From an uncultured Myxococcales bacterium (GTDB lineage: Bacteria; Myxococcota_A; Polyangia; Fen-1088), in NCBI GenBank assembly GCA_964540815.1, contig CAZIOH010000031.1, forward strand, positions 211-64,210: 64,000 bases of DNA, written 5' to 3'. Every line of letters begins with the position of its first letter. Position 1 is the stretch's first letter. Positions 2,402 to 16,322 of this stretch are shown here, in pieces. A model generated the notes under the pieces. That model was not told where the DNA came from and made no database searches. It saw only the letters and a program-made list of their open reading frames with translations. The translations under genes were made by a program, and so were the position numbers.

Positions 2402-4666
2402 ATGACCATGCTCGCAACACGAATCGATCGAACCAGGTTCGCAGCTCTCACGTCGGGCGCCTTGATGTTCAGCCTCTGGGCAGGCTGCCAGGCCGACCTC
2501 GATGGCCCTCCGGGGCCCGCCATCGAGGCAATGAGCGAGGGGCTCCGCCAGGAAGCCAAGCCCCTGCGCGCGCTCATCGCCCGGCAGGTGGGTGGGCTCG
2601 ACAAGATGCGGGTGCCCGCCGAGGACGCCGCCATCCCCCTGCCTCCCGAAGACCCCAGCCGTCGAGGGCGCTACGAGACGACCGAGGCCAAGCGCTATCT
2701 CGGCAAGTTGCTGTTCCATGACCCGGTCCGCACGGCCCGCGTCGACATCAACAAGAGCGTGAACCCGCCCATCCGGGCCGGCGAGCCCCGCGACTTGCCC
2801 GACGGGACCGCGTTCGGCGGAACAGTGGACGGCGCCAGCCCGAACGTGCAGGCCGTGGTGAACGCGACGAAGAGCACCGGCTCGTGCGGGAGCTGCCACC
2901 TGGGCGAGGCCGCAGGCAAGGCGGGCACCGCGCTGAACTTCAACGTCGGTGGCGAGGGCCGCGGCTACACCGACGAGAACGGCGACTACATCATCCGCCG
3001 GCGCCCGCAGAAGAACCTCATTCCTCGCCCGGCCACCTACTTGCCCGGGGTCGCGCTGTTCGAGGGCGACACGGGCGTCGACGCCCTGCCCACGCTCACC
3101 GACATCTACGACGTCGACGGGTCGATCGAGATCGCCACTCCCGCCCGTCAGAAGGCGGATCCGCTGCCCAGCGCGCTGCTGGAGACGGGTCGCCTCGACC
3201 AGCTCGACAGCGTCGGGCGGCAGTCCCCCTCCATGGTTGGCTTCGCTTTCAACAACCGCCTGCTCTTCGGGGGCTTCGCGGGTGAGTCGAACGGGCTTCC
3301 GGGCGGGCTCAATCCCCTGAATGATCCGGCACAAGAGAACCTGACGCTGCTGCTCCTGGACGCGCACCGGATGCTGGACTTCGAGTCGGCCGAGCTGCAG
3401 AAGCTCCCGGCGTTCGTCGAGCTGTTCCGGCAAGCGTTCCCCGGCGAGGCGCAGGCCTACCAGGCCTGCAAGCAGGCGAACCCGGAAGCGACCTGCCAGA
3501 CCGAGCTGAACGCGCTGGTCAACGACGACACGGTGCTGCGCGCCACCGCGACGTTCCTGCGGACCGCGGTCACCCGGAACACGCCGTTCGATCGGTTCAT
3601 CGCCGGAGAAGACGCCCTCACCGCCCGCCAGCAGCGGGGCGCGCGGCTGTTCTTCACCCGAGCCGAGGACGGCGGCGCCGGGTGCTTCGGGTGCCACAGC
3701 GGCCCGATGTTCAACAAGCAGCCGAACGATCCGGATCTTGCCGGGATCGGTCAGCTCGTCGAGGAGAACTTCTTCAACCTCGGCATCGGCGATCACCCGG
3801 TCCAGGCGCTGAACGCGCTGCGCAGGGGACACCTGACGTTCGGCCCCGATGGCAAGCCGCTGCCGCACGGGGAGGATACCGGGCGTCAGGAGATCACGCA
3901 CAACCCGGAGCACGCCTACAAGTTTCGCGCGCTGACGCTGCGGCAGCTGAGGGACGCGCGGACGTTCTTCCACAATGGATCGTTCACCAAGCTGCGAGAT
4001 GTGGTGAGCTATTTCAACGACGGCGTTCCCCAGGACCAGCAGTTTGCCGGCCAGGCGTCGACGCTGGAGCCACGGTTCACCCATCCCCGGGGCGGCTCGG
4101 CGCCGCGAGGCCTCGGTCTCGATGACGACCAGATGGATGCCCTCACCGACTTTCTGGAAGGCGGTCTCTACGATCCCGGTTTCGTCCAGGCCTTCCAGCC
4201 CAACGAGACCGACCTGACCTACTCGAAGAATCACCCTGAGCTGGCCGCCCTGGGCGCCAAGGACGGACAGCTCCTCAGTGGCCGCGCCATCGACGACGAC
4301 GACCCCCTGTCGCGGCGCGATCAGGGCCTCGAGTTCCTCGACGTGACCCGACGAATCCGGAGCAATCGCGTCGGGATCGCTCGTCCCGGTCAGGCGCTCG
4401 AGGAGGTGTTCATGTTCACGAACACCAGCGACGACGTCATCGACACGCACTTGCTGATCATCGCCGCGGGGCTGCCCCGGGGCGTCGTGCTTCGCAACGC
4501 GAGCGGCACGACCAGGAGCGGGGAGCCATACATCCGCGTGTTTCTCCCCGGGGGCGTGCTGCAGCCGGGCCAGCACATCTCGCAGGCCTTCACGTTCAAC
4601 GGCGTGACCCGGCGCAGGCAGCCGACCTACCGGTTCACGCTGCTCTCCGGCCAGGGCGCTCCCTAG
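2402..4666 (+). CDS. di-heme cytochrome c peroxidase family lipoprotein (CCP/MauG-like)
   Basis: Two CxxCH haem motifs are present (CGSCH and CFGCH). A lipoprotein-type signal (FSLWAGC) is present. An RBS GAGGAGAGG precedes the ATG at 2402. The 863-aa minus-strand ORF over the same span is antisense. Confidence 0.8.
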   Translation: MTMLATRIDRTRFAALTSGALMFSLWAGCQADLDGPPGPAIEAMSEGLRQEAKPLRALIARQVGGLDKMRVPAEDAAIPLPPEDPSRRGRYETTEAKRYLGKLLFHDPVRTARVDINKSVNPPIRAGEPRDLPDGTAFGGTVDGASPNVQAVVNATKSTGSCGSCHLGEAAGKAGTALNFNVGGEGRGYTDENGDYIIRRRPQKNLIPRPATYLPGVALFEGDTGVDALPTLTDIYDVDGSIEIATPARQKADPLPSALLETGRLDQLDSVGRQSPSMVGFAFNNRLLFGGFAGESNGLPGGLNPLNDPAQENLTLLLLDAHRMLDFESAELQKLPAFVELFRQAFPGEAQAYQACKQANPEATCQTELNALVNDDTVLRATATFLRTAVTRNTPFDRFIAGEDALTARQQRGARLFFTRAEDGGAGCFGCHSGPMFNKQPNDPDLAGIGQLVEENFFNLGIGDHPVQALNALRRGHLTFGPDGKPLPHGEDTGRQEITHNPEHAYKFRALTLRQLRDARTFFHNGSFTKLRDVVSYFNDGVPQDQQFAGQASTLEPRFTHPRGGSAPRGLGLDDDQMDALTDFLEGGLYDPGFVQAFQPNETDLTYSKNHPELAALGAKDGQLLSGRAIDDDDPLSRRDQGLEFLDVTRRIRSNRVGIARPGQALEEVFMFTNTSDDVIDTHLLIIAAGLPRGVVLRNASGTTRSGEPYIRVFLPGGVLQPGQHISQAFTFNGVTRRRQPTYRFTLLSGQGAP

Positions 4667-5010: not shown

Positions 5011-5571
5011 ATGTGCAGGATCTCCCCGATCGATCCCGACGCTCTCACGGCCGCGCGCGACGAGGTCCTCGATGCCGTGAGGGCGAAGTTCGGCATGGTG
5101 CCAATGATGGTGCGAACGATGGCGCGGTCGCCCGCCGTCCTCTCCGGCTGGGCGGCGCTCGACGCCGCGCTGGCCAAAGGGGTGCTCGGGTCGCGGGTGA
5201 GCGAGCTCATCGCGCTCGCGGTGGCCCAGGTGAACCTGTCCCCATACTGCCTGGCGGCGCACAGCGCGCTCGGCCAGATGGTCGGGCTCTCGCCCGACGA
5301 CGCCGTCGAAGCCCGGCGGGGCCATGCGCCCCGGCGAGGCCAAGGGGAAGATCCGAAGGAGGCCGCTGCCATCCGTCTGGCGCTGGCGATCCTCGAGACC
5401 CGCGGAGGCGTGAGCGACGAGGTGCTCTGCCTCTGCCGCGAAGCGGGACTGTCGGACCAGGAGATGACCGAGGTGTCGGCACACGTGGCTCTGAACGTCC
5501 TCGCGAACTACTTCACCCGCCTGGCGGAGCCGCAGATCGACTTCCCGATGGTCGACGTCCGCCTGCCCTGA
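5011..5571 (+). CDS. carboxymuconolactone decarboxylase (AhpD-like/CMD) family protein
   Basis: The CMD-family motif NLSPYCLAAHS (CxxxH) is present. Start is ATG at 5011 (MCRISPID...), inside the longer track ORF 4876..5571. Confidence 0.75.
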   Translation: MCRISPIDPDALTAARDEVLDAVRAKFGMVPMMVRTMARSPAVLSGWAALDAALAKGVLGSRVSELIALAVAQVNLSPYCLAAHSALGQMVGLSPDDAVEARRGHAPRRGQGEDPKEAAAIRLALAILETRGGVSDEVLCLCREAGLSDQEMTEVSAHVALNVLANYFTRLAEPQIDFPMVDVRLP

Positions 5572-5624: not shown

Positions 5625-6587
5625 ATGTCAATGTCCGCCATGACCGCATCCCCCATCGCGACGCCCACCCCGGCCGCTCCCGCCATGCCGACTCCGGTCA
5701 CCTTCGGGTCGACCATGGTCGATGGCCTGAACATCGCCTACCGTGAGGCCGGCAACCCGTCGAGCCCGAAGCTGGTCCTGCTGCACGGCTTCCCGGCCTC
5801 GTCGCACCAGTACCGCAATCTGGTGCGCGTCCTCGGCGATACCTTTCACGTCATCGCCCCCGACTACCCGGGATTCGGAAACAGCGATACCCCCGACCCC
5901 GGGAAGTTCGGCTACACCTTCGACAAGCTTGCCGAGGTGGTCGAGCGCTTCCTCGCCATCAAGGGGTTCGTTCACTACGGACTGTTCGTGCAGGACTACG
6001 GCGGACCGGTGGGCTTCAGGATCCTGGCGCGCCATCCCGAGGCGCTCGATTGGCTGGTCATCCAGAACACCAACGCCTACGAGATCGGCTTCACCGCGGC
6101 CTGGGACGGCTTCCGCGGCGCCTTGTGGAAGAATCCGTCGCCCGAGACCGAAGCGCCACTTGCCGGCTTTCTGACCCACGACGCGATCAAGGGCATCTAC
6201 CTCCACGGCGCCAAGCGCCCCGAGTTCGTGAGCCCGGACAACTGGGAGTCGGATTTCGGGTTCATGCAGCGCCCGCACGCCGTTCGCATGAACCTCGACC
6301 TCTTCTACGACTACCGGAAGAACGTGCCGCTCTACCCGGAATGGCAGGCATTCCTGCGCAACCGGCAGCCAAAGACCCTCATCTTCTGGGGTCAGGACGA
6401 TGTGTTCTTCACGAAGGAGGGCGGCGAGGCCTATCTGACCGACCTCCCCAACGCAGAGATGCACCGGCTCGCCGCCGGACACTTTGCGGTCGAGGACAAC
6501 CTCGAGTACATCTCAGAGCACATGCACCGCTTCTACGCGGAGAAGGTTGCCTCTGACGGCAGGAAGAAGGCGGTCGGCCACCGATAG
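5625..6587 (+). CDS. alpha/beta hydrolase fold protein (epoxide hydrolase/haloalkane dehalogenase-like)
   Basis: VLLHGFPASSHQYRNL and the GFG-containing nucleophile elbow region are present. Start is ATG at 5625 (MSMSAMTAS). Confidence 0.85.
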   Translation: MSMSAMTASPIATPTPAAPAMPTPVTFGSTMVDGLNIAYREAGNPSSPKLVLLHGFPASSHQYRNLVRVLGDTFHVIAPDYPGFGNSDTPDPGKFGYTFDKLAEVVERFLAIKGFVHYGLFVQDYGGPVGFRILARHPEALDWLVIQNTNAYEIGFTAAWDGFRGALWKNPSPETEAPLAGFLTHDAIKGIYLHGAKRPEFVSPDNWESDFGFMQRPHAVRMNLDLFYDYRKNVPLYPEWQAFLRNRQPKTLIFWGQDDVFFTKEGGEAYLTDLPNAEMHRLAAGHFAVEDNLEYISEHMHRFYAEKVASDGRKKAVGHR

Positions 6588-6633: not shown

Positions 6634-8673
6634 TCAGCCACCGCCTGCGGCAAGGCCCAGGGACTTGATGCGCGAAGCGAGCGTGGTCGGCTTCATGCCG
6701 AGCCTCTCGGCCGCGCCACCAGGGCCGAAGATCTTGCCGTCGGCCTCCCGGAGCGCTCGAGCGATGTTCTCGCGCTCCTGGTTCTTCAGCTCGTCTCGGG
6801 TGAGCAGGCCGGTCGCCACCGACGGCTGGCCGACCGGCCGAACCGGGGCGGCCGGCTTTGGCGCCGGCAGGTCGAACTCCAGCAGCCCATCTCGGGAAAG
6901 GATCACGGCCCGCTCGACGGCATTCTGGAGCTCGCGGATGTTGCCCGGCCAGTCGTGAGCCGTGAGCTGGGCCATCACGGCCTGCGCTATCCGGGGGGTG
7001 GGGCGGCCCATCTGGCGCGCGATCACCCTCGCGAAGTGGGAGACCAGCAGCGGGACGTCCTCGCGCCGCTCGCGCAGGGGCGGCAGGGCGATCGGAAAGA
7101 CGCTGAGGCGGTAGAAGAGATCTTCGCGGAAGCGGCCTTCTTGGGCCTCCCTCTTCAAGTCGCGGTTCGTCGCCGCGATGATCCGGACATTCACCTTGCG
7201 GGTCCTGGTGTCCCCGACGCGCTCGAGCTCCCGCTCTTGCAATACGCGCAACAGCTTGGCTTGCATCGCAAGCGGGATCTCCCCGACCTCGTCCAGGAAG
7301 AGCGTGCCACCGTCCGCCAGCTCGAAGCGCCCCGGCTTGTCCTTGACGGCGCCGGTGAAGGCGCCTCTGACGTGACCAAAGAACTCGCTCTCGAACAGGC
7401 TGTCGGGGATGGCGCTGCAGTTCACCTTGATGAGGACCTGGCCGTTTCGGTGACTCTGCTGGTGGATCGCCCGGGCGATCAACTCCTTTCCGGTTCCACT
7501 CTCGCCGTTGATGAGCACCGAAGCATCCGTGGGAGCGACGAGCTGGGTCTGCTGCAGCACCTTCTGCAAGCCGGGACTCTCTCCGATGACCGCGCCGAAG
7601 TTGAAGTCCGAGAGGATCTCTTCGTAGAGGTAGGCGTTCTCGGCCTGCAGGCGAACTTGCTGCCGCTCGAGGAGCACCCGATCCGTGATGTCGACCATGG
7701 CGGTGCGGGTGTACTCGCCGCCCCGCGCGGGCTTCGACCACCATTGGACCCAGATCGGGGCGCCGGTGTCCTTGCGGCGCAGCTCCAGCACGACTCCGTC
7801 CTTTCCCTTTCCCGCCTCGATCGCCTCGAACGCCTCCTGCAGGGCGCGCTGGTTCTCCGGTGTCTCGGCGACCAGTGACTTGCCGAAGGTCCTCGCGATC
7901 TCCGTCGGATCGATGCCGAGCATCTTGATCGCCGCCGCGTTGGCGCGGATGAAGCGGGAGTCCATTCCCTCGTGCACATAGGGGATGGGGGCCTCATCGA
8001 AGAGATCGCGGAAGCGCTCCTCGTTGTCGGCCAGGATCCGATTGGTGGCACGCAGCTGTTCGTTCAGCGACTGCTGCAAGCCCTCGAGGGCGGCGATCTT
8101 CCTCGCCGCCAACCGAAGCTCCATCTGGTCCATCACCAGCGACGCCAGCTTGTTCAGCATCTCGGCCTCGGGGGCCGTGAGCTCGCGCGGCTCTCGATCG
8201 ATGATACAGAGTGTGCCGAGATTGAAGCCTTCCCGGGTGCGCAGGGGCGCCGCCGCGTAGAAGCGCAGACCCAGGCTCCCGGTCACCAGGGGATTGGCGA
8301 GCGTCCTCGGATCGATCGCGGCATCGGACACTTGATAGAAGTCCGGGGAGAGGATCGCCGAGGAGCACAGGCCTGGAGCGCGATCGATCTCCGCTGCATC
8401 GAGGCCAGCGTGGGACTTGAACCAGATCCGATCGTGGTCCACGAGGCTGATGAGCGCGATGGGGACACGGAACAGGCCTGCCGCGACCGCCGTGATGCGA
8501 TCGAAGGCGCCATCCTGAGGGGTGTCGAGAATGTCGTACCGCCGGAGGACGTCGAGACGCTCCTCCTCATTGGCGGCCATGTTCTCGCTCGCACTGGGCA
8601 CGAGGACTTCTAGCACGGGGACCCGAGCGGGGGGCGTGGGTTCGCCCGCGCCCACGGCCGGGTCGAACGGCAC
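6634..8673 (-). CDS. sigma-54-dependent transcriptional activator with GAF and PAS sensor domains (bEBP, Fis-type HTH)
   Basis: The AAA+ sigma-54 interaction domain contains GESGTGKELIARAIH. A GAF-like N-terminus and a PAS region precede it, and a C-terminal HTH follows. The track start at 8673 is GTG. An ATG at 8580 (MAANEEERL, start of GAF) is an equally plausible start. Confidence 0.85.
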   Translation of the reverse strand: MPFDPAVGAGEPTPPARVPVLEVLVPSASENMAANEEERLDVLRRYDILDTPQDGAFDRITAVAAGLFRVPIALISLVDHDRIWFKSHAGLDAAEIDRAPGLCSSAILSPDFYQVSDAAIDPRTLANPLVTGSLGLRFYAAAPLRTREGFNLGTLCIIDREPRELTAPEAEMLNKLASLVMDQMELRLAARKIAALEGLQQSLNEQLRATNRILADNEERFRDLFDEAPIPYVHEGMDSRFIRANAAAIKMLGIDPTEIARTFGKSLVAETPENQRALQEAFEAIEAGKGKDGVVLELRRKDTGAPIWVQWWSKPARGGEYTRTAMVDITDRVLLERQQVRLQAENAYLYEEILSDFNFGAVIGESPGLQKVLQQTQLVAPTDASVLINGESGTGKELIARAIHQQSHRNGQVLIKVNCSAIPDSLFESEFFGHVRGAFTGAVKDKPGRFELADGGTLFLDEVGEIPLAMQAKLLRVLQERELERVGDTRTRKVNVRIIAATNRDLKREAQEGRFREDLFYRLSVFPIALPPLRERREDVPLLVSHFARVIARQMGRPTPRIAQAVMAQLTAHDWPGNIRELQNAVERAVILSRDGLLEFDLPAPKPAAPVRPVGQPSVATGLLTRDELKNQERENIARALREADGKIFGPGGAAERLGMKPTTLASRIKSLGLAAGGG

Positions 8674-8770
8674 TACGAAGTGTCGTCGATCGACGAGTTC
8701 TCGTCGGGCTCCAGGCCCGGTCTGGCTGCGATCGCTGCGCGATCCGGCCCCGAGCGCGCCGTCTCCGCGG

Positions 8771-8786
8771 TGGCACGGTCTTCGCT
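8771..8786 (+). promoter_or_regulatory. candidate sigma-54 (-24/-12) promoter TGGCACG-N4-TCGC upstream of the secreted-paralog/msrPQ operon
   Basis: The sequence gTGGCACGgtctTCGCt has the GG and GC dinucleotides at the canonical 11-nt spacing, with one mismatch to TTGC. It lies about 75 bp upstream of the start at 8860 and is divergent from the bEBP gene. Confidence 0.5.
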
Positions 8787-8859
8787 GAAGCCTCGCGGGA
8801 TGCCGTGGTCTTCACTCGGAGCCACCCACCGCGATTTTCCACTTGAAAGGACCAACACC

Positions 8860-10056
8860 ATGATTCGACGCCTCGACTTCCGTAACAGACCCTTGACATT
8901 CCTGAGCTCGGCCGTCGTCGCCGGGTTCGGACTCTCCACGAATCCGCTCTACGCGGACTCGGAGGTCACGCCGGCGCCGGCCTCGATCGGGGCCGATGTG
9001 CCGGTGACGTACTTCGGCCCGGCGCCGTCTTCCGTCGAGCCCGAGTTGATCGGGCCGCACCAGTTGATCACCGCCGGTCAAGTGGATCTGGCAGCCAGCA
9101 CGGTGAAGCTTCCGCTCTACAAGGGCCGGATGAAGAACACCGGCAAGGCCGTGTGGTTCATCCTCACGGATACCAGCGACGAGGGGCAGGCCCGAGCCCT
9201 TGGGATCAACTACTCCGCGAAGCTGCAATACGCGGCGACCTGCCGGGCCGCCCGAAACGGTGACTTCGCAAACGACGGCTCGGTGATCTTCGAGGAGGGG
9301 ACCGTCGACTTCGCGCCGGTCCATGCCGTCACACCGGGCGTCGCGCCGAAGGTCTTCCCGCCCGCCGCATTTCAGGCTGGCTCGGTCGGGGATGCCGACT
9401 ACAGCCCGCTGGTTCGCCTCGCCGGGGTCGTCTACAACGCCCCCATCGTGGCGTTCGGGGTCGAGGACGCAGATCTCGATTTCTGCCAGGCCACCCCTGA
9501 CCATTCCAAGGTCCACGACAAGGTCACCGCCATCTGTCCGAGGGACAACACCGTCACCCTGCGGCTGACCAACGGCTTCAGCTTCTCTCGACCCATCGTC
9601 TACATCAGCCTGGACGCAAACGATCCGCTCGCCGCCGCGCTCGAATCGGCGACCCTGGCCCCGGCCCTGAGCGACGTCACGGTGGGGCGAGACGACAGCT
9701 TCACCAGCGGCGTCGAGCGTCTCTTTGCGGTCATCAATGGTCCCACCAATGTGACCTCGGGCGAGGTGAACCCGCAGCGGCAAGGTTTCGAGAGCGTTCT
9801 CAAGGGAGACGGGTACGGGCCGCTCAACGTCTTCGGGGGAATCCCGACCTTGGCGACCGACTACAGCCCGCTGTGGGATGTGAACCTCGGCGAGTGGACC
9901 CAAGAGGCCATCGACAACGGCTATCGCTCACGCATCACCGACGAGTTCACCTGGCTCGGAATGGCGGTGCGCGGCTTCGTGACTGGGCCGGGGGGCACGC
10001 CCTACGGCTCGAGCGGAATCATCATCAACTGTCCTCCCGTCGCACGTCTCCTTTGA
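8860..10056 (+). CDS. secreted protein of unknown function, paralog A (about 398 aa), Sec signal peptide
   Basis: Inside track ORF 8680..10056; ATG start at the MIRRLDFRNRPLTFLSSAVVAGFGLS signal peptide. Roughly 45-50% identical to the next gene across its full length. The two share conserved Cys pairs (FCQATPDHSKVHDKVTAICP) and a DYSPLWD-NLG-WT motif. Confidence 0.7.
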   Translation: MIRRLDFRNRPLTFLSSAVVAGFGLSTNPLYADSEVTPAPASIGADVPVTYFGPAPSSVEPELIGPHQLITAGQVDLAASTVKLPLYKGRMKNTGKAVWFILTDTSDEGQARALGINYSAKLQYAATCRAARNGDFANDGSVIFEEGTVDFAPVHAVTPGVAPKVFPPAAFQAGSVGDADYSPLVRLAGVVYNAPIVAFGVEDADLDFCQATPDHSKVHDKVTAICPRDNTVTLRLTNGFSFSRPIVYISLDANDPLAAALESATLAPALSDVTVGRDDSFTSGVERLFAVINGPTNVTSGEVNPQRQGFESVLKGDGYGPLNVFGGIPTLATDYSPLWDVNLGEWTQEAIDNGYRSRITDEFTWLGMAVRGFVTGPGGTPYGSSGIIINCPPVARLL

Positions 10057-10093
10057 ACTCCCTCCTCTACCGACACCAACGGAGCCTACGATC

Positions 10094-11464
10094 ATGAAAA
10101 CCTCTGAATACGTCATTCTCGTCACTGTCCTCAACCTGATGGCGGGCGTGGGATGCAACAGCAGCAGCGGAACGGCGAGCGCTCTCAGCACCGGCGGAGG
10201 TGGCCTCGGCGGAAGCGGCGGCCAGCCGCCGGGAGCCGCGGACGCCAGCGACCTTCGAACGGGGCCGCAATGTCGCCAGGTCGGGGCCACCCGTTCTCCG
10301 CAGGTGACGACTGGCCTCGCCGACGAGATAGCTCCGGCGCCGCCTTCGATCGGCGCGGACGTCCCAGCGACCTACTTCGGGCCGAGCCCGTCCAGTGTGA
10401 ACCCCAACCTGGTGGGTCCGCTCACCTTGCTGAGGAGTGGCACGATCGATTTCGCCAAGGGCACCATCAAGCTGCCGCTCTACAAGGGCATGGTCAAATC
10501 GACGGGCCTCGCCGTTTACTACATCCTCACGGACACCAGCGACAAGGGGATTGCCGATGGGCTCGGGTTGAACTACTCGGCGAAGTTGAAGTTCGCGAAC
10601 GCCGCGGCGAGCGCGGGGGTCAACGGCTCGAATCCGGCGACCACCCTTCCCGCGCGGCAGGCGCACACGACCGCCGATCTCTCGCTGCAGTTCGACAACG
10701 GCACCGTCGACTTTGCCCCGCGGCTGGCGGTCACCCCCGGTGGGGCGCCGGACTTCTTTCCACCGTCCGCGGTGCAGCCCGGGTCGATCGGCGACAGCGA
10801 CTACACGCCGCTCGTCTACGTGCAGGATCAAGGGGTCGTGTACAACGCGCCCGTCGTCGCCTACGGTGTGACCGACGGCGATCTCAGCTTCTGTGACGGC
10901 GTCCCCGACTACGCCAAGGTGCATGACAAGGTCGCCGCCATCTGCCCGGACGACGGTACGGTGACCATTCGCCTGACGGCGGGCTTCAGCTTCGGCAAGC
11001 CCGTGTGGTATCTCAGCACGGACGCGAGCGATCCGCTCCTGGCTGCCCTCGAGCAAGCGACGTTTGCACCGGCCCTGCAGAACACCCGCGTCGGGGGCGA
11101 CGACGGCGCGTTCAGCGCGGTCGAGCGGATCTTCTCCTTCGCCAATGGTCCCACGAACGTCGGGACTGGCGACGTGGTCAACCCGCAACGACAAGGCCTG
11201 AACAGCGCGCTCAAGGGCGAAGGAGGTCCGCTCAACGTGCTCGGTGGAATTCCACACGTCGCCACCGATTACAGCCCCCTGTGGGACTTCAACCTGGGGG
11301 TCTGGACGGCCGACGCCATCGCCAAGGGCTATCGCTCTCGTGTGAACGAGGAGTTCCAGATCCTGGGGCTCGTCCAGCGCGGCTTCATCACCGGGCCAGG
11401 CGGCAAGCCGTGGGGTTCGACTGGCCTCATCGTGGACTGCCCCATCGTGCACCGCTTTCTCTAG
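10094..11464 (+). CDS. lipoprotein of unknown function, paralog B (456 aa), Gly/Ser-rich linker after the lipobox
   Basis: MKTSEYVILVTVLNLMAGVGC is a lipoprotein-type signal. Shared motifs with paralog A include LPLYKG, LTDTSD, NYSAKL, VYNAPVVA, KVHDKVAAICP and ATDYSPLWD. Confidence 0.7.
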   Translation: MKTSEYVILVTVLNLMAGVGCNSSSGTASALSTGGGGLGGSGGQPPGAADASDLRTGPQCRQVGATRSPQVTTGLADEIAPAPPSIGADVPATYFGPSPSSVNPNLVGPLTLLRSGTIDFAKGTIKLPLYKGMVKSTGLAVYYILTDTSDKGIADGLGLNYSAKLKFANAAASAGVNGSNPATTLPARQAHTTADLSLQFDNGTVDFAPRLAVTPGGAPDFFPPSAVQPGSIGDSDYTPLVYVQDQGVVYNAPVVAYGVTDGDLSFCDGVPDYAKVHDKVAAICPDDGTVTIRLTAGFSFGKPVWYLSTDASDPLLAALEQATFAPALQNTRVGGDDGAFSAVERIFSFANGPTNVGTGDVVNPQRQGLNSALKGEGGPLNVLGGIPHVATDYSPLWDFNLGVWTADAIAKGYRSRVNEEFQILGLVQRGFITGPGGKPWGSTGLIVDCPIVHRFL

Positions 11465-11475
11465 AGCACCCGTTC

Positions 11476-11517
11476 CCAACCAACCAGCCAACCGACCAAC
11501 CAACCAACCAACAACAG
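11476..11517 (+). repeat. imperfect (CCAA)n tetranucleotide tract (about 10 units) in the 5' leader of the Met-rich lipoprotein gene
   Basis: The tract ccaaccaaccagccaaccgaccaaccaaccaaccaacaacag sits directly upstream of an AAGGAG RBS and the ATG at 11542. It is an A/C-rich simple repeat in a roughly 70% GC genome. Confidence 0.6.
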
Positions 11518-11541
11518 ACCCACCCACCAAGGAGATCCCCC

Positions 11542-11928
11542 ATGAAACTCGCACTCGTCGTTCTCGCCACCATGCCGTTCAGCTTCTCCGCCTGCAAATC
11601 CTCCCCGCCCGGGGGCCCGGAGATGACACAACCGGCGATGCACGCCACCATGGCTGGCCAGGCACACGGCCCGGGCATGATGAGCGCGCCCGCCATGGCA
11701 GGGACGGGTAACACTGCGCCAGCGATGGCCGGTGGCGCCATGGCCGGTGGCTCGATCATGGCGGCACATGCCGTCGCCCCGGCGGCCGCCGTGATGGCAC
11801 ACGCGCCCGCCACGGCGCCCGCCATGGTGCCCGCCGCCATGGCACCGGCCACCACCATGGGGGCGACATCAAAGCCGACCATGAAGACGGCCGGTGGCAA
11901 GCGTCCGGTCGCCGGAACCCGACTCTAG
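11542..11928 (+). CDS. Met/Ala/His-rich small lipoprotein (MrpX-like methionine-rich peptide, or Cu-binding Met-rich protein), 128 aa
   Basis: ATG at 11542 with an AAGGAG RBS. The signal ATMPFSFSAC points to a lipoprotein. The mature part (AMHATMAGQAHGPGMMSAPAMAGTGNTAPAMAGGAMAGGSIMAAHAVAP...) has about 13% Met with MxxxM spacing and several His. It lies immediately upstream of msrP. Confidence 0.7.
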   Translation: MKLALVVLATMPFSFSACKSSPPGGPEMTQPAMHATMAGQAHGPGMMSAPAMAGTGNTAPAMAGGAMAGGSIMAAHAVAPAAAVMAHAPATAPAMVPAAMAPATTMGATSKPTMKTAGGKRPVAGTRL

Positions 11929-12191
11929 GGACCAGTCACTCGGATGCTCCACGGAATCAACATGGCCAGCGAGGTGGACGGCACGGGGATGATGACCGGC
12001 CGTTCCCTCGCGTGGGGGCGTGAGACTCCTGAGTCAGCAATGAATGCGATTCCGTCGCCGGAGACTCCGGCGGCGGAGGCCCGATCGCGCGCCGTCCAGG
12101 CCTGCGGTCGTGCTAGTGTTTCCTGCGTGGTCGACGTGACGGATCGGGAGCGGAGTCGTGGCGGCGAAGGCCGGCGACTCCGTCGAGGCTG

Positions 12192-13178
12192 ATGGCCAGT
12201 TCGGACGACATACCGCCGTCGGAGATCACACCGGCCTCGATGTACTTCAACCGGAAGACCTTCATGCGGGGGGTCGTGGCAGCTGCCAGCGTGGCCACGA
12301 CGGCGGCCGTCTACCGCCGTCTGAACGGCAAGTCCGAAGCGGCCGTCGAGGCGCCGAAGTTGGCCGGCCTGGAAGCGCCGGCCGTATCCGCCGAGGCGGC
12401 CGCGGCCGACGGCTACCGCATCGACGAAGCGATGACGCCGCTCGCTTCCGTCACGCACTACAACAACTTCTACGAGTTCACCACGGACAAGGACGGCGTG
12501 GCGGACCGGGCCAAGGACTTCTCGACCAAGGGCTGGCAGGTGACGGTCGATGGCCTGGTGGGCAAGCCCAGGGTGTTCGACCTCGCCGATCTCCTGAAGA
12601 TCAGTCCCCCCGAGGAGCGGATCTATCGAATGCGTTGCGTGGAGGCGTGGTCGATGGTGATTCCGTGGGCCGGCTTCTCGTTGTCGAAGCTCCTCGCGCG
12701 GGTGGAGCCGCTCAGCGCGGCGAAGTACGTCGCGTTCGAGACGCTGCTCGATCCAGCGCGCATGCCAGGTCAGAAGACCGGCGTGCTCGACTGGCCATAC
12801 ATCGAGGGACTTCGGATGGACGAGGCCATGCATCCCCTGACGATCCTGGCGTCGGGCTTGTACGGGCGCGAGCTGCCCGCGCAGGACGGGGCCCCGGTGC
12901 GGCTGGTGGTGCCCTGGAAGTACGGCTTCAAGGGGATCAAGTCGGTCGTGAAGATCTCCCTGGTCGCGGCGCAACCCAAGACCACCTGGAACCTCCAGGC
13001 GCCCGACGAATATGGGTTCTTCGCCAACGTCAACCCCAAGGTCGACCATCCGCGCTGGAGCCAGGCCACGGAACAGCGCATCGGTGAATCGGGCCGCCGC
13101 GCCACCCTGATGTTCAACGGCTACGGCAAGCAGGTGGCGAGCCTGTATTCGGGCATGGACCTGCGCGCGAACTTCTGA
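12192..13178 (+). CDS. msrP: protein-methionine-sulfoxide reductase catalytic subunit MsrP (YedY, molybdopterin-dependent)
   Basis: The YedY hallmark THYNNFYEF is present, with the Mo-cofactor region that follows it. A Tat-like N-terminus ([20 protein letters not shown]) is present. An alternative start is the ATG at 12240. Confidence 0.85.
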
Positions 13179-13200
13179 GCTGCGGACGCGGAGACCACAC

Positions 13201-15003
13201 ATGAAGCGCAAGCGCGACCTCCGGTTCACGAAGCTCCTGGTCGTGGTCAACGCGATCGTTCCGGGGGCGATCCTGGCCTGGGATGCAGCCCACGGACAGA
13301 TTGGTGTCAACGGCGTCAACTACGCCCTGCACACCACGGGATTGTTGGCCCTGATCTTCTTGCTGCTCACGCTCCTGGTGACGCCGCTGCGCAAGATCAC
13401 CGGGATCAACACCCTGATCTCGTACCGCCGCACGCTGGGGCTCATGGGGTTCGGCTACGCATGCGTGCATTTTCTGATCTTCTACGGGCTCGATCGCGCC
13501 GCGAGCGTCTCGAGCACGGTGCACGAGATCTTGACCAGGCGCTACCTGCTCATCGGGACCGCGGGGTTGTTGTTGATGGTGCCGCTGGCTGCCACCTCGA
13601 CGAACGCCATGCTGATGCGGCTGGGGGCAAAGCGCTGGAAGGCGCTGCACCGCCTGGTCTACCTGGTCGCGATCGCCGGCGCGCTGCACTACTACCTGCT
13701 GGTGAAGTCGGATGTTCGACAGCCGCTGGCGTTCGCCGGGGTGCTGGTGGCGCTCCTTGGCTTCCGGGTGGTGGGGTACCTCCTCGATCGGCGCAAGGCA
13801 CTCGACCCCGCGAAGCGCGCCCCCGCTTCGATGACGACGACGGCTTCGGCGACGTCGCCATCGCCGTCGCCGTCGCCGTCGGGCCCTGCCAGACCCCGCT
13901 CCTGGTCGGGGAGCCTTCGGGTGGCGAACGTGTTCGACGAGACACCCGACGTTCGCACGTTCCGTCTGATGCGCGAGGATGGGCAGCCGCTGCCGTTCGA
14001 GCACCAGCCAGGCCAGTACCTGAATCTGGCCCTCACCATAGACGGGAGGCGTGTCAATCGGTCGTACACCATCGCGTCGTCGCCCACGCGCGGGCACTCC
14101 TGCGAGGTCACGGTCAAGCGCAGCCCGAGCGGGCAGGGCTCTGTCCACCTGCACGATCAAATTCGCGTCGGTACCATGCTGAAGGTGTCGGCGCCCGCCG
14201 GCCGCTTCGTGTTCACGGGGGCAGGGTCGGATCGGGTCTTCCTCATCGCAGGCGGCGTGGGGATCACCCCCCTCATGTCCATCATTCGCTACCTGACGGA
14301 TCGCAGCTGGCCGGGCCAGATCCACCTGCTGTTCTCGTCGAAGAAGCGGGTCGATCTGATCTTCGCCGAAGAGCTCGCCTATCTGGAGCGGCGGTTCCCC
14401 AACCTCCACGTCTGTCACACGTTGTCGCGCGAGGATGGAAAAGGGGAGGTCAGCGATTGGAAGGGCGAGCGGGGCACCATCACCCGTGAACTCCTGGCGC
14501 GCGTGATGCCGGACGTGGCCCGTGGGCCGGTCTATCTGTGCGGGCCGGACGGCATGATGGCGGCGGTGCGGAAGGTGCTTCTCGAGATGGGTTTGCCCGA
14601 GGGGCTGCTGAAGACCGAGGCCTTCGTGTCTCCGCTGACCGCGGGGGCGCTGGCGCCTGCGGCCACCGGAGAGGACGCCGTCTCGGCGACCTTGGAGACT
14701 GCAGCGGCTGCCGACCCGCTGGCGACCACCCGGACGGAGGGGGCAGGGCATGTGCGCTTCCAGCGATCGGGCCAGCAGATCGAGGAGTCGCCGACCAAGA
14801 CGATCCTCGAGACCGCAGAGGACGCTGGCGTCAGCATTCCTTTTGAATGTCGTTCGGGCATCTGTGGACAGTGCAAGACCAAGTTGATCTCGGGGCGCGT
14901 GACCATGGAGACCGAGGACGCGCTCAGCGCGGCCGAGAAGGCCCGGGGATTCATCCTCGCCTGTCAGGCGCACGCCGTTGGTGACGTGACCGTCGATGCC
15001 TGA
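13201..15003 (+). CDS. msrQ: MsrQ (YedZ-like ferric-reductase transmembrane haem-b domain) fused to an FNR-type FAD/NAD(P)H oxidoreductase domain and a C-terminal 2Fe-2S ferredoxin domain
   Basis: The N-terminal 200 aa form a six-helix membrane domain with conserved His. RSYTIASSP is an RxYS FAD-binding motif and FLIAGGVGITPLMS is an NAD(P)-binding motif. The C-terminus CRSGICGQCKTK...ACQ is a plant-type 2Fe-2S ferredoxin motif. The reading frame runs 600 aa without interruption. Confidence 0.85.
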   Translation: MKRKRDLRFTKLLVVVNAIVPGAILAWDAAHGQIGVNGVNYALHTTGLLALIFLLLTLLVTPLRKITGINTLISYRRTLGLMGFGYACVHFLIFYGLDRAASVSSTVHEILTRRYLLIGTAGLLLMVPLAATSTNAMLMRLGAKRWKALHRLVYLVAIAGALHYYLLVKSDVRQPLAFAGVLVALLGFRVVGYLLDRRKALDPAKRAPASMTTTASATSPSPSPSPSGPARPRSWSGSLRVANVFDETPDVRTFRLMREDGQPLPFEHQPGQYLNLALTIDGRRVNRSYTIASSPTRGHSCEVTVKRSPSGQGSVHLHDQIRVGTMLKVSAPAGRFVFTGAGSDRVFLIAGGVGITPLMSIIRYLTDRSWPGQIHLLFSSKKRVDLIFAEELAYLERRFPNLHVCHTLSREDGKGEVSDWKGERGTITRELLARVMPDVARGPVYLCGPDGMMAAVRKVLLEMGLPEGLLKTEAFVSPLTAGALAPAATGEDAVSATLETAAAADPLATTRTEGAGHVRFQRSGQQIEESPTKTILETAEDAGVSIPFECRSGICGQCKTKLISGRVTMETEDALSAAEKARGFILACQAHAVGDVTVDA

Positions 15004-15074
15004 GCGTCTGGTGGACCCGTCGGAATGACAAAGCTCCTCGGGTGGAGAGAGTCACGTCGTCCGGCCCATTCTTG

Positions 15075-16322
15075 TCAGACAGGACACGAGCTGGCGGCTG
15101 GCTCGCCTCCGTGCGCTGCATGGGTGGAGTAGTCGGGCAGCTCGAGATCGTCGACGAGGCTGGACCCGACGGCCAATCTCGCGAGAAGCGGCGACCCCAG
15201 CACCCTCGTGGCCTGGTTCCGCATGAATATGCCGAGACCCGTTCGGGGTGCGATTGAACTGGCGAATCGGGCCGCTGCCGATTGCGTTTGAAGCATGAAC
15301 TTTCGCAGGAGCTGCTCGTATCGACTGAAGGCATCCTGCACGCTGCCGGAGCTCGAGGTAGCGCGGGCCATCTCGCCCGCCAGCACGTAAGCGCTCACGA
15401 GCGCCAGCGCGGCCCCCTGGCCGGCCATCAGGGACGGTGCAAACGCCGCGTCACCCACGAGCGCGACCCGGCCCTTCGACCACGCGTCCATGTGGATCTG
15501 GCTGACCCGATCGAAGGAGAGCGTATCCACGTCCCCGAGTGCGGCGAGAACGCGGTCACTCTCCCAGCCCGTGTTCGCAAAGCGACGGTGCAGATACGCC
15601 CGCTGCTGGTCGAGGTCCCGCGGCAGGGCCGCCACTCTGCGGCTTTCGGCCGCCAGGAGGAGGAAGCTGGTCCGATCATCGGGCATCGAATAGCGCATGA
15701 TCTGTTGCCCCGGCACTGCAAAGCCCACGCAGTCAGCCCCGTCGGCCGGGCGGTAGCCGGTACTTTCGAACGCCGCTGCCGTGTAGCCGAGGAATCGCTC
15801 GAAGCGAGACTGCGGCCCGAAGACCAGGGAACGCACCGTCGAGTGCAGCCCGTCGGCGGCGATCACGACGTCGAAGCGACGCGATGGGCTCAGGCGAAAA
15901 TGGACCAGGACGCCGTCCGCGTCCTCCTCGAGCGCGGAGATGGAGTCGCCGAAAATTGACTCCACCCGACCATCGATCGAGCTCTGGAGGATCTCGCTGA
16001 GCGCGCCTGGCGGCAAGCTGATGTAGCGTCCGTTGGTGAGGGCTTCGAATCGCTCCCCCTTGAAGCCGCCTGTGCGCCTTCCCTGGCGGTCCACCAGGCG
16101 AACCTCGCGCACGCGATACCCGGCAGCCAGGACCCTCGGCAAGAGTCCCATACGCTCGACGAGGTCGAAGCCAGGTCCCCAGAGATGGATGATGTGGCCG
16201 CTCCGGCGCGGCGCGGGCGCCTGTTCGACCATGGTCGGAACGCAACCATAGCGAAGCAACCAGTTGGCCACGGCAGGCCCCGCAATCCCGTTGCCGGAGA
16301 TGAGCACGGACTGTCCCCGCAT
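15075..16322 (-). CDS. FAD-dependent monooxygenase (salicylate/aromatic hydroxylase, UbiH-like family)
   Basis: MRGQSVLISGNGIAGPAVANWL is a GxGxxG FAD fingerprint. The C-terminal GDAAH-type motif VALVGDAAFAPSLMAGQGAALA is present. The likely start is the internal ATG at 16322; the track ORF extends to 16412. Confidence 0.8.
   Translation of the reverse strand: MRGQSVLISGNGIAGPAVANWLLRYGCVPTMVEQAPAPRRSGHIIHLWGPGFDLVERMGLLPRVLAAGYRVREVRLVDRQGRRTGGFKGERFEALTNGRYISLPPGALSEILQSSIDGRVESIFGDSISALEEDADGVLVHFRLSPSRRFDVVIAADGLHSTVRSLVFGPQSRFERFLGYTAAAFESTGYRPADGADCVGFAVPGQQIMRYSMPDDRTSFLLLAAESRRVAALPRDLDQQRAYLHRRFANTGWESDRVLAALGDVDTLSFDRVSQIHMDAWSKGRVALVGDAAFAPSLMAGQGAALALVSAYVLAGEMARATSSSGSVQDAFSRYEQLLRKFMLQTQSAAARFASSIAPRTGLGIFMRNQATRVLGSPLLARLAVGSSLVDDLELPDYSTHAAHGGEPAASSCPV

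Follow-up and report, generated by a model that had tools for sequence, protein, structure and literature searches.

DUF7482 in tandem: soluble and lipid-tethered exported paralogues with an invariant lone cysteine

Two adjacent genes on the forward strand of a 64,000-nucleotide stretch of DNA from an uncultured Myxococcales bacterium (contig CAZIOH010000031.1, positions 211 to 64,210, assembly GCA_964540815.1; hereafter the window) encode paralogous exported proteins, A (8860..10056) and B (10094..11464). Both are members of DUF7482 (PF24298), a family catalogued in Pfam without a known function; an earlier note, made from the letters alone, had called the family unrecognised, and this description no longer holds. 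A is predicted to be a soluble periplasmic protein and B a lipoprotein that carries the same domain on a long tether, an arrangement that recurs in tandem pairs elsewhere in the family. The domain contains one invariant cysteine, Cys391, that is unpaired in most members. It is tentatively proposed that the two proteins form a soluble-plus-tethered module with a site centred on Cys391 that would handle reactive oxygen or halogen species. The descriptive findings (that the genes are real, their paralogy, their membership of DUF7482, their export, architecture and distribution, and the lack of any general linkage to msrPQ) are held with very high confidence.

The gene pair

The window has a G+C content of ~67%, and its nearest named relatives are Labilithrix and Polyangiales (Myxococcota). 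Gene A begins at the ATG at 8860, downstream of the ribosome-binding-site-like sequence GAAAGGA, and encodes 398 amino acids; gene B encodes 456. The coordinates and lengths given in the earlier note are exact. BLASTP aligns the two proteins over 380 residues with 61% identity and 73% positives (E = 1e-163), which bears out the proposed paralogy but makes the 45-50% identity first estimated too low. Every motif block that had been listed as shared, from LPLYKG to GYRSR, is present in both proteins.

The export signals are likewise as first described. The N-terminus of A (MIRRLDFRNRPLTFLSSAVVAGFGLSTNPLYA, then D) is an ordinary signal peptide. That of B (MKTSEYVILVTVLNLMAGVG-C, the cysteine being Cys21) has the form expected of a lipoprotein and leads into a Gly/Ser-rich linker, ~55 residues long, ahead of the conserved domain. 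A Tat signal was considered for A on account of an RR motif and was rejected, as the motif is poor and the homologues do not have it.

A protein 100% identical to A (P0001) is encoded on 23+ metagenome contigs, and the sequence is therefore already in public databases. Long antisense ORFs (open reading frames) overlap the stretch that holds A and B; it is the forward-strand ORFs that have thousands of homologues, and the antisense ORFs are the usual by-product of high G+C.

Family membership and distribution

Both proteins pass the PF24298 gathering threshold of 27.5 bits, with whole-protein scores of 32.8 bits for A and 41.2 bits for B. Neither reaches a full-length alignment to the 257 positions of the model: A covers positions 131-192, and the best stretch of B covers 97-203, so that 62-107 of the 257 positions align and the hits are marked 'faint' in the gene tables. 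On these alignments, A and B are distant or partial members of PF24298. Nearly all of their homologues bear a precomputed PF24298 (PF24298.2) annotation.

The family is large: at 90% identity it comprises more than 3100 clusters, and at 50% identity (E <= 1e-3) still 1646. A is 53-63% identical to relatives outside the Myxococcota, and homologues occur in at least 10 bacterial phyla and several archaeal lineages. The bacterial carriers include Burkholderiales, Alteromonadales, Chloroflexota, Deinococcota, Acidobacteriota, Cyanobacteria, Nitrospirota, Gemmatimonadota and Armatimonadota, and the archaeal carriers include Nitrososphaerales, Methanotrichaceae and Methanobacteriota. The distribution across phyla is patchy and shows signs of horizontal transfer.

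The absence of a functional assignment in the earlier note was well founded. Searches of NCBIfam returned no match for A or B, sequence and profile searches of the PDB returned only noise (E >= 0.3), and a literature search for DUF7482 found no paper that mentions the family. The source names of the homologues are all 'hypothetical' or 'conserved exported protein of unknown function', and the clusters of distant relatives are named only 'hypothetical protein'. Since the family is without a described function, structure or literature, membership of DUF7482 says nothing about mechanism.

The cyanobacterial zinc-acquisition exoprotein ZepA (PMC10957091) was considered as a possible identity and was rejected as a different family. 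ZepA has a PEP-CTERM tail and an H-X2-9-H-F/Y-H zinc-binding motif and is absent from archaea (PMC10957091), whereas DUF7482 proteins end in ...NCP(I/P)VxR(F/L)L, have neither a PEP-CTERM tail nor an invariant His triad, and are present in archaea.

Free and tethered forms in tandem

The gene neighbourhoods of the family were compared in 80 genome loci and in five loci of close relatives (~85 loci). Tandem DUF7482 pairs were detected in 29 of the 80 genome loci, and the close relatives, at 68-79% identity, all retain the pair. By eye, all 29 pairs and the pair in the window share one layout, in which the first gene has an ordinary signal peptide, while the hydrophobic segment of the second leads straight into a cysteine and a low-complexity tether. 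Under a strict lipobox pattern, 22 of the 27 full-length second copies match. The tethers range from 20 to 140 residues (median 55) and contain collagen-like Gly-X-Y repeats in eight cases. None of the 54 single-copy members has a lipobox, and so, wherever the tethered form occurs in this sample, the soluble form accompanies it.

Long true collagen-like Gly-X-Y runs, of ~27 triplets in the first case, are present in the second copy at locus L073 (4100-5347) and in protein P0129. Such runs suggest trimeric stalks that would present the DUF7482 domain. Other architectures were also observed, including giant proteins with 3-6 DUF7482 copies together with collagen repeats or a type IX secretion system (T9SS) sorting domain, and proteins in which an FHA domain and a transmembrane segment precede the DUF7482 domain. 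One metagenome contig with a homologue at 79% identity (L088) carries four DUF7482 genes at a single locus: a tandem pair, and 382- and 339-aa copies that flank a CMD/AhpD-like gene, with a LysR regulator separating the groups.

In a neighbour-joining tree, the first and second copies fall into separate clades within the Gammaproteobacteria and within the Burkholderiales, and in the window A groups with the first copy of locus L001 and B with its second copy. In loci L002, L005 and L024, the two copies are sisters. The tree does not separate one ancient duplication from several, or repeated duplication from gene conversion.

Structure and conserved residues

The full-length AlphaFold model of A has a confident core and a disordered N-terminus. 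An AF2 model of residues 69-398, built from a more diverse alignment, has a predicted local distance difference test score (pLDDT) of 95.2 and a predicted template-modelling score (pTM) of 0.92. When both models were compared by Foldseek with 350,542 PDB chains, no match was obtained at E <= 0.001; the best had E ~2.4 and TM scores of 0.13 or below. An hhalign comparison of the N-terminal and C-terminal halves detects a shared unit (E = 2e-5) that consists of a beta-hairpin, a strand ending in (T/S)D-x-x-D and a helix. An internal duplication is also indicated by the Pfam matches, since the two halves align to one and the same part of the model. Each DUF7482 domain is modelled as a compact two-lobed alpha/beta fold whose lobes share the duplicated unit.

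The Pro-rich N-terminal arm (residues 35-66, PAPASIGADVPVTYFGP...) is among the best-conserved parts of the alignment, yet its pLDDT in the monomer model is below 50. It is possible that this arm serves as an oligomer interface.

A comparison of sequences identifies a well-preserved set of positions around which a functional site might be built. B retains all 72 invariant columns of the first alignment, A1 (48 sequences). Wider alignments reach down to 30% identity and include FHA-fused forms and relatives of 340-390 aa that do not have the N-terminal arm; here E262, N293, G294, Q308, G309, Y335, P337, W339, C391 and P392 are invariant, and D220, Y181 and R307 nearly so. His219 is kept in the main clade, but not across the wider superfamily.

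Most members have three cysteines. Two of these, C209 and C226, spaced 17 residues apart and found in 104 of 108 sequences, are probably joined by a disulfide. The third, C391, is present in 107 of the 108 sequences (the remaining one has an alignment gap at this position) and is kept without exception in the 43 sequences of an alignment that extends down to 30% identity. In most members it has no possible partner, the sole candidate, C128, being present in nine of the 108, and in four members C391 is the only cysteine. The suggestion that the conserved cysteines are probably disulfide-bonded accordingly fits one pair and does not extend to C391. That an exported protein should keep a cysteine invariant yet unpaired strongly hints at a functional thiol, whether redox-active, nucleophilic or a metal ligand.

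To our knowledge, several of these features are new: the soluble plus tethered lipoprotein architecture, the invariant lone cysteine, the lack of a solved relative detectable by Foldseek despite a pLDDT of 95, and the recurrent neighbourhood of haloperoxidase, DM13, di-heme and AhpD-like genes that is described below.

Recurrent neighbours across phyla

Neighbouring genes were counted by Pfam family over two genes on each side of the DUF7482 genes. The sole clearly enriched family is that of exported PAP2/vanadium-haloperoxidase-like proteins, which account for 16 of 129 downstream neighbours; by tblastn they are found in 17 of the 80 loci, mostly as the next gene downstream. The type found in Deinococcota and Chloroflexota is a full-length homologue of the vanadium iodoperoxidase of Zobellia (4CIT; E = 1.7e-43). 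The window itself contains no vanadium-haloperoxidase-like gene.

Less frequent neighbours include DM13 proteins (nine loci and one Deinococcus plasmid), flavoprotein disulfide reductases of the RclA/MerA-like kind in Deinococcota, whose scores lie near but below the RclA, MerA and HOSCN-reductase models, and a repeated combination of a small SUOX-type molybdenum protein with an FNR-like reductase.

Three genes upstream of the pair in the window, all on the forward strand, have orthologues at other DUF7482 loci. The first (2408..4666) encodes a MauG/MbnH/CCP-like di-heme protein of 752 aa with weak NCBIfam matches to MbnH- and MauG-type models, and orthologues lie beside DUF7482 in a Burkholderiales locus (L022, 55% identity) and a Trueperaceae locus (L013, 51%). 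The second (5011..5571) encodes an AhpD-like protein of the CMD family (AhpD core domain 32.9 bits, cut-off 27.8), with orthologues of 32-45% identity in seven other DUF7482 loci. The third (5625..6587) encodes a haloalkane-dehalogenase-like alpha/beta hydrolase; its closest matches in the PDB are haloalkane dehalogenases (E = 1e-18), its scores stay under every NCBIfam cut-off, and orthologues are found in ~11 other DUF7482 loci, with identity reaching 73% (a Burkholderiales locus) and 69% (an Acidobacteriaceae locus).

Taken jointly, these neighbours provide circumstantial evidence for peroxide or hypohalite chemistry outside the cytoplasm. The idea of an envelope oxidative-stress role, which had been put forward in the earlier note, draws its support, also circumstantial, from the recurrence of such neighbours in other phyla.

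Regulation and the local gene row

A sigma-54 enhancer-binding protein with a GAF-PAS-AAA+-HTH_8 arrangement is encoded divergently from the pair (6634..8673, reverse strand; Pfam Sigma54_activat E = 2.8e-73, with GAF, PAS and HTH_8 matches) and is likely to be its regulator. A sigma-54-type -24/-12 promoter-like element (TGGCACGGTCTTCGCT, TGGCAC-N5-TCGCT; 8771..8786, forward strand), with one mismatch, lies 73 nt upstream of the ATG of A and faces the activator gene. Imperfect palindromes at 8670-8761 are weak and might be activator binding sites. Sigma-54 activators are present in 10 of the 80 DUF7482 loci, and a Binatia locus (L049) has a 67% identical orthologue; -24/-12-like sites were found upstream of DUF7482 in five of the ten other activator-bearing loci. 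The activator thus travels with DUF7482 and not with msrPQ.

The pair is followed in the same orientation by genes for a Met-rich lipoprotein, msrP and msrQ. The gaps in this row are 37 nt between A and B, 77 nt between B and the Met-rich lipoprotein, and 263 nt between the Met-rich lipoprotein and msrP, or 311 nt with the gene caller's start. A terminator scan of 8860-15003 found no forward-strand terminator-like site, so that co-transcription is possible, and the 263-311 nt gap before msrP leaves room for a separate msrPQ promoter. A sigma-70 promoter scan between the genes returned nothing useful, and an Rfam scan of 8400-15200 returned nothing credible.

Two further features of the spacers may be recorded. 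Short repeats of the CCAA/CCAACC type (ccaaccaaccagccaaccgaccaaccaaccaaccaacaaca) occupy 11470-11525 on the forward strand, just before the ribosome-binding site of the Met-rich lipoprotein gene. An 82-codon forward-strand ORF (11944-12192) takes up most of the spacer ahead of msrP and ends in a stop codon that overlaps the msrP ATG (TGATG); it is probably spurious, as the gene callers do not call it, it has no signal peptide and the DNA is G+C-rich.

A gene of the NrsF anti-sigma-F family (PF06532; 105-512, forward strand; identical contig L081) is located 8.3 kb upstream of the pair, and no extracytoplasmic function (ECF) sigma factor is called beside it. In close relatives, NrsF and an ECF sigma factor, or a ZAS anti-sigma factor and an ECF sigma factor, adjoin the pair. 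In one of them (L091), the DUF7482 pair is immediately preceded by an ECF sigma gene and two NrsF genes.

The Met-rich lipoprotein and msrPQ

The gene between B and msrP (11542..11928, forward strand) encodes a Met/Ala/Pro-rich lipoprotein of 128 aa. Its mature part contains 12.6% Met, 28% Ala, 12.6% Pro and 3.6% His; charged residues (K, R, E and D) make up ~7%, or ~10% if His is included. It has no Pfam or NCBIfam match. By analogy, it may be an MrpX-like sacrificial Met sink or a Met/His binder of the Cu(I) type. The closest msrPQ relatives have no equivalent gene, and among the other DUF7482 loci only one Met-rich neighbour was found, which brings the total to two of ~85 loci. That neighbour, in Pseudocolwellia sp. 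AS88 (L027, 9272-9676, reverse strand), is a 134-aa exported Met/His-rich protein with 9.7% Met, encoded directly upstream of the pair on the opposite strand.

The msrP gene (12192..13178, forward strand; alternative start 12240) encodes a periplasmic molybdenum-dependent methionine sulfoxide reductase, with 463 bits to NF003767 (cut-off 207) and a Pfam Oxidored_molyb match. It is followed by an msrQ gene (13201..15003, forward strand) whose 600-aa product is fused to an FAD/NAD(P)H reductase and a 2Fe-2S ferredoxin domain (Ferric_reduct, FAD_binding_6, NAD_binding_1 and Fer2), and which scores 147 bits against the NCBIfam MsrQ model NF003831 (cut-off 130). Judging from its domains, the fusion would supply MsrP with electrons from NAD(P)H through a built-in route. 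The same MsrQ-FNR-2Fe-2S fusion is widespread, with more than 2000 homologues, mostly on Myxococcota-like metagenome contigs.

The earlier note had placed the pair at the head of an msrPQ operon. In the window no terminator-like site separates the pair from the genes for the Met-rich lipoprotein, msrP and msrQ downstream, but this placement does not hold for the family as a whole. Neither the 80 genome loci nor the five close-relative loci contain a true msrP; the only molybdenum-enzyme matches in the 80 loci are small SUOX-type proteins in five loci, 24-33% identical, which are not msrP. Conversely, the nearest msrP and msrQ-FNR relatives (76% and 69% identical) have neither a DUF7482 gene nor a Met-rich gene upstream. 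The linkage between msrPQ and DUF7482 is therefore local to this genome.

The row in the window bears some resemblance to the MrpX-YedY/YedZ (MsrPQ) system of Azospira suillum, a periplasmic hypochlorite-scavenging system (Melnyk et al. 2015, PMC4436054) in which NrsF/SigF senses reactive chlorine species and drives mrpX-yedYZ (PMC4436054). Like that system, it holds msrP, msrQ and a gene for a small exported Met-rich protein, with the NrsF-family gene 8.3 kb upstream. The Azospira system as described has no DUF7482 protein (PMC4436054) and is under SigF/NrsF, whereas the row in the window is fronted by the sigma-54-type element and the adjacent sigma-54 activator. Compared by composition only, MrpX is soluble, with 20% Met and 44% charged residues, whereas the Met-rich protein of the window is a lipoprotein with the lower proportions given above. 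The MsrQ of the window, unlike that of Azospira, is fused to FNR and 2Fe-2S domains.

Proposed function and alternatives

The proposal that A and B act as an oxidant-handling module is put forward as a possibility and not as an established role. A would be free in the periplasm, and B would hold the same domain at the membrane by its lipid and its long flexible tether. On the basis of conservation, the functional site would lie around Cys391-Pro392, Glu262, Asn293-Gly294, Gln308-Gly309 (with the nearly invariant Arg307) and Tyr335/Pro337/Trp339. The two proteins may act together as a hetero-oligomer, since the tethered form was always seen together with the soluble one and both keep the conserved N-terminal arm that the monomer model leaves unplaced. 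Outside the cytoplasm, they could use thiol chemistry to scavenge, reduce or sense reactive oxygen or halogen species, of which peroxide and hypohalous acids are examples. Transcription of the pair in this genome would start at the sigma-54-type promoter under the control of the adjacent GAF-PAS activator, potentially with read-through into the genes for the Met-rich lipoprotein and msrPQ.

The likeness of DUF7482 to thiol peroxidases such as Prx, Ohr/OsmC and AhpD is one of concept only, and consists of an invariant Cys and Glu, a near-invariant Arg and the AhpD-like genes nearby. Ohr has a Cys-Arg-Glu site, and the C391/R307/E262 set of DUF7482 recalls it. Unlike the thiol peroxidases, DUF7482 has no conserved resolving cysteine and no identified reductant. 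The vanadium-dependent haloperoxidases (VHPOs; for example 4CIT), although they are the commonest neighbour of DUF7482 and are exported, are not homologous to it. A published survey of one VHPO subfamily describes its gene neighbourhoods as variable and non-conserved, and no mention of such a partner was found there.

A number of observations weigh against the oxidant-handling proposal. Its functional part is drawn wholly from gene neighbourhood, and no neighbour is universal: many loci (Granulosicoccus and L089, for example) show the pair alone amid unrelated genes. The assignments of neighbours to RclA, to a 'peroxidase-related' model and to haloalkane dehalogenases all fall below curated cut-offs, and the PAP2 type of Acidobacteriota is as close to acid phosphatases as to haloperoxidases. 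Searches of Pfam, NCBIfam, the PDB and Foldseek (E <= 0.001) found no sequence or fold similarity between DUF7482 and thiol peroxidase, reductase or sensor families. No re-reduction system for an oxidised extracytoplasmic cysteine is consistently linked to DUF7482, and metal binding, nucleophilic attack in a hydrolase or covalent cross-linking would be equally plausible roles for the lone cysteine. As for the promoter, one-mismatch sigma-54 matches are no more frequent in the window than in shuffled sequence, so that the element is supported by its position only.

If the cysteine is a ligand, DUF7482 might be a metal or oxyanion binder or chaperone that captures, outside the cytoplasm, thiophilic metals (for instance Cu(I)) or oxyanions (for instance vanadate) and either buffers them or hands them over to partner enzymes such as the vanadium-haloperoxidase-like protein, with the tethered copy positioned at the membrane. 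The invariant lone Cys, accompanied by invariant Glu, Tyr, Trp and Gln residues and the nearly invariant Arg307, would suit such a role, and the very high conservation of the family is typical of small-ligand binders. The neighbourhood offers further points in its favour: the commonest neighbour belongs to the vanadate-dependent haloperoxidase/PAP2 type, DUF7482 in Deinococcus has DM13, MerA-like reductase and Rieske proteins as neighbours, and Met/His-rich exported proteins adjoin the pair in the window and in L027. However, there is only a single invariant thiol and no invariant His or Met, and cop, cus, mer and vanadate-transport genes are not among the 25 commonest neighbour families on either side. 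The MerA-like neighbour, moreover, shows no C-terminal Cys pair in the sequence examined and fails the MerA cut-off, and the Met-rich neighbours are confined to two of the ~85 loci. A binder of this kind is regarded as quite unlikely.

A role for the cysteine as a nucleophile leads to a different explanation, namely that DUF7482 is a cysteine-dependent enzyme (a hydrolase, transferase or cross-linker) that acts on a conserved envelope or environmental substrate, with redox neighbours that are coincidental and derive from horizontally shuffled gene islands. Conservation is of an enzyme-like kind, many of the 72 invariant columns among the 48 sequences being polar, and the invariant Cys is accompanied by the near-invariant Asp220 and, in the main clade, by His219. 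The patchy distribution across phyla with its signs of horizontal transfer, the giant multi-copy secreted forms with a T9SS sorting domain and the many loci with no informative neighbours would all be in keeping with this. The poor conservation of His219 in the wider superfamily, the absence of similarity to any known hydrolase fold or family and the absence of any recurrent neighbour that hints at a glycan, peptidoglycan or lipid substrate argue the other way, and an enzyme of this kind is considered improbable, to about the same degree as the metal or oxyanion binder.

It is also conceivable, if decidedly improbable, that DUF7482 has no chemistry of its own and is a passive extracytoplasmic head domain on stalks, with a binding, sensory or structural role. 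The relatives with an FHA-transmembrane-DUF7482 arrangement do resemble transmembrane signalling proteins, and the collagen-like stalks and the giants with up to six copies and a T9SS tail resemble surface display. Adhesins and structural proteins usually diverge fast, however, and the identity of 53-63% that DUF7482 maintains extends across phyla and domains of life; the invariant lone Cys and polar residues also favour a specific chemical or ligand site.

The idea put forward in the earlier note, that A and B are protected or repaired by MsrPQ or are chaperones dedicated to msrPQ, has in its favour that the genes for the Met-rich lipoprotein, MsrP and MsrQ come straight after the pair on the same strand with no predicted terminator, but it is very improbable indeed and already largely refuted by comparative genomics, since A and B contain only 0.8% and 0.7% Met and are thus poor MsrP substrate candidates, true msrP is missing at the ~85 other loci, the nearest msrP/msrQ-FNR relatives have no DUF7482, the family also occurs in archaea and monoderm Chloroflexota, and a gap of 263-311 nt precedes msrP.

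The oxidant-handling proposal can also be taken further, to the claim that DUF7482 is a new fold and a new class of extracytoplasmic single-cysteine redox hetero-oligomer that detoxifies, generates or senses hypohalous acids or peroxide. In this extended form it is doubtful. If true, it would make DUF7482 an unrecognised partner of vanadium haloperoxidases and of the MsrPQ/RclA-type reactive-chlorine defences, one that has spread horizontally in Bacteria and Archaea.

Significance

DUF7482 is a large family, unusually conserved for an exported protein, whose members range from soil myxobacteria to ammonia-oxidising archaea. The two-gene architecture, the lone invariant cysteine and the repeatable set of neighbours provide starting points for experiments, and in this sense the family offers a target, not yet a mechanism. 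Should the oxidant-handling proposal prove wrong, DUF7482 would still be a good target for structural genomics. If it is true, the family would supply a missing extracytoplasmic part to the ways in which bacteria and archaea use reactive halogen species or defend themselves against them.

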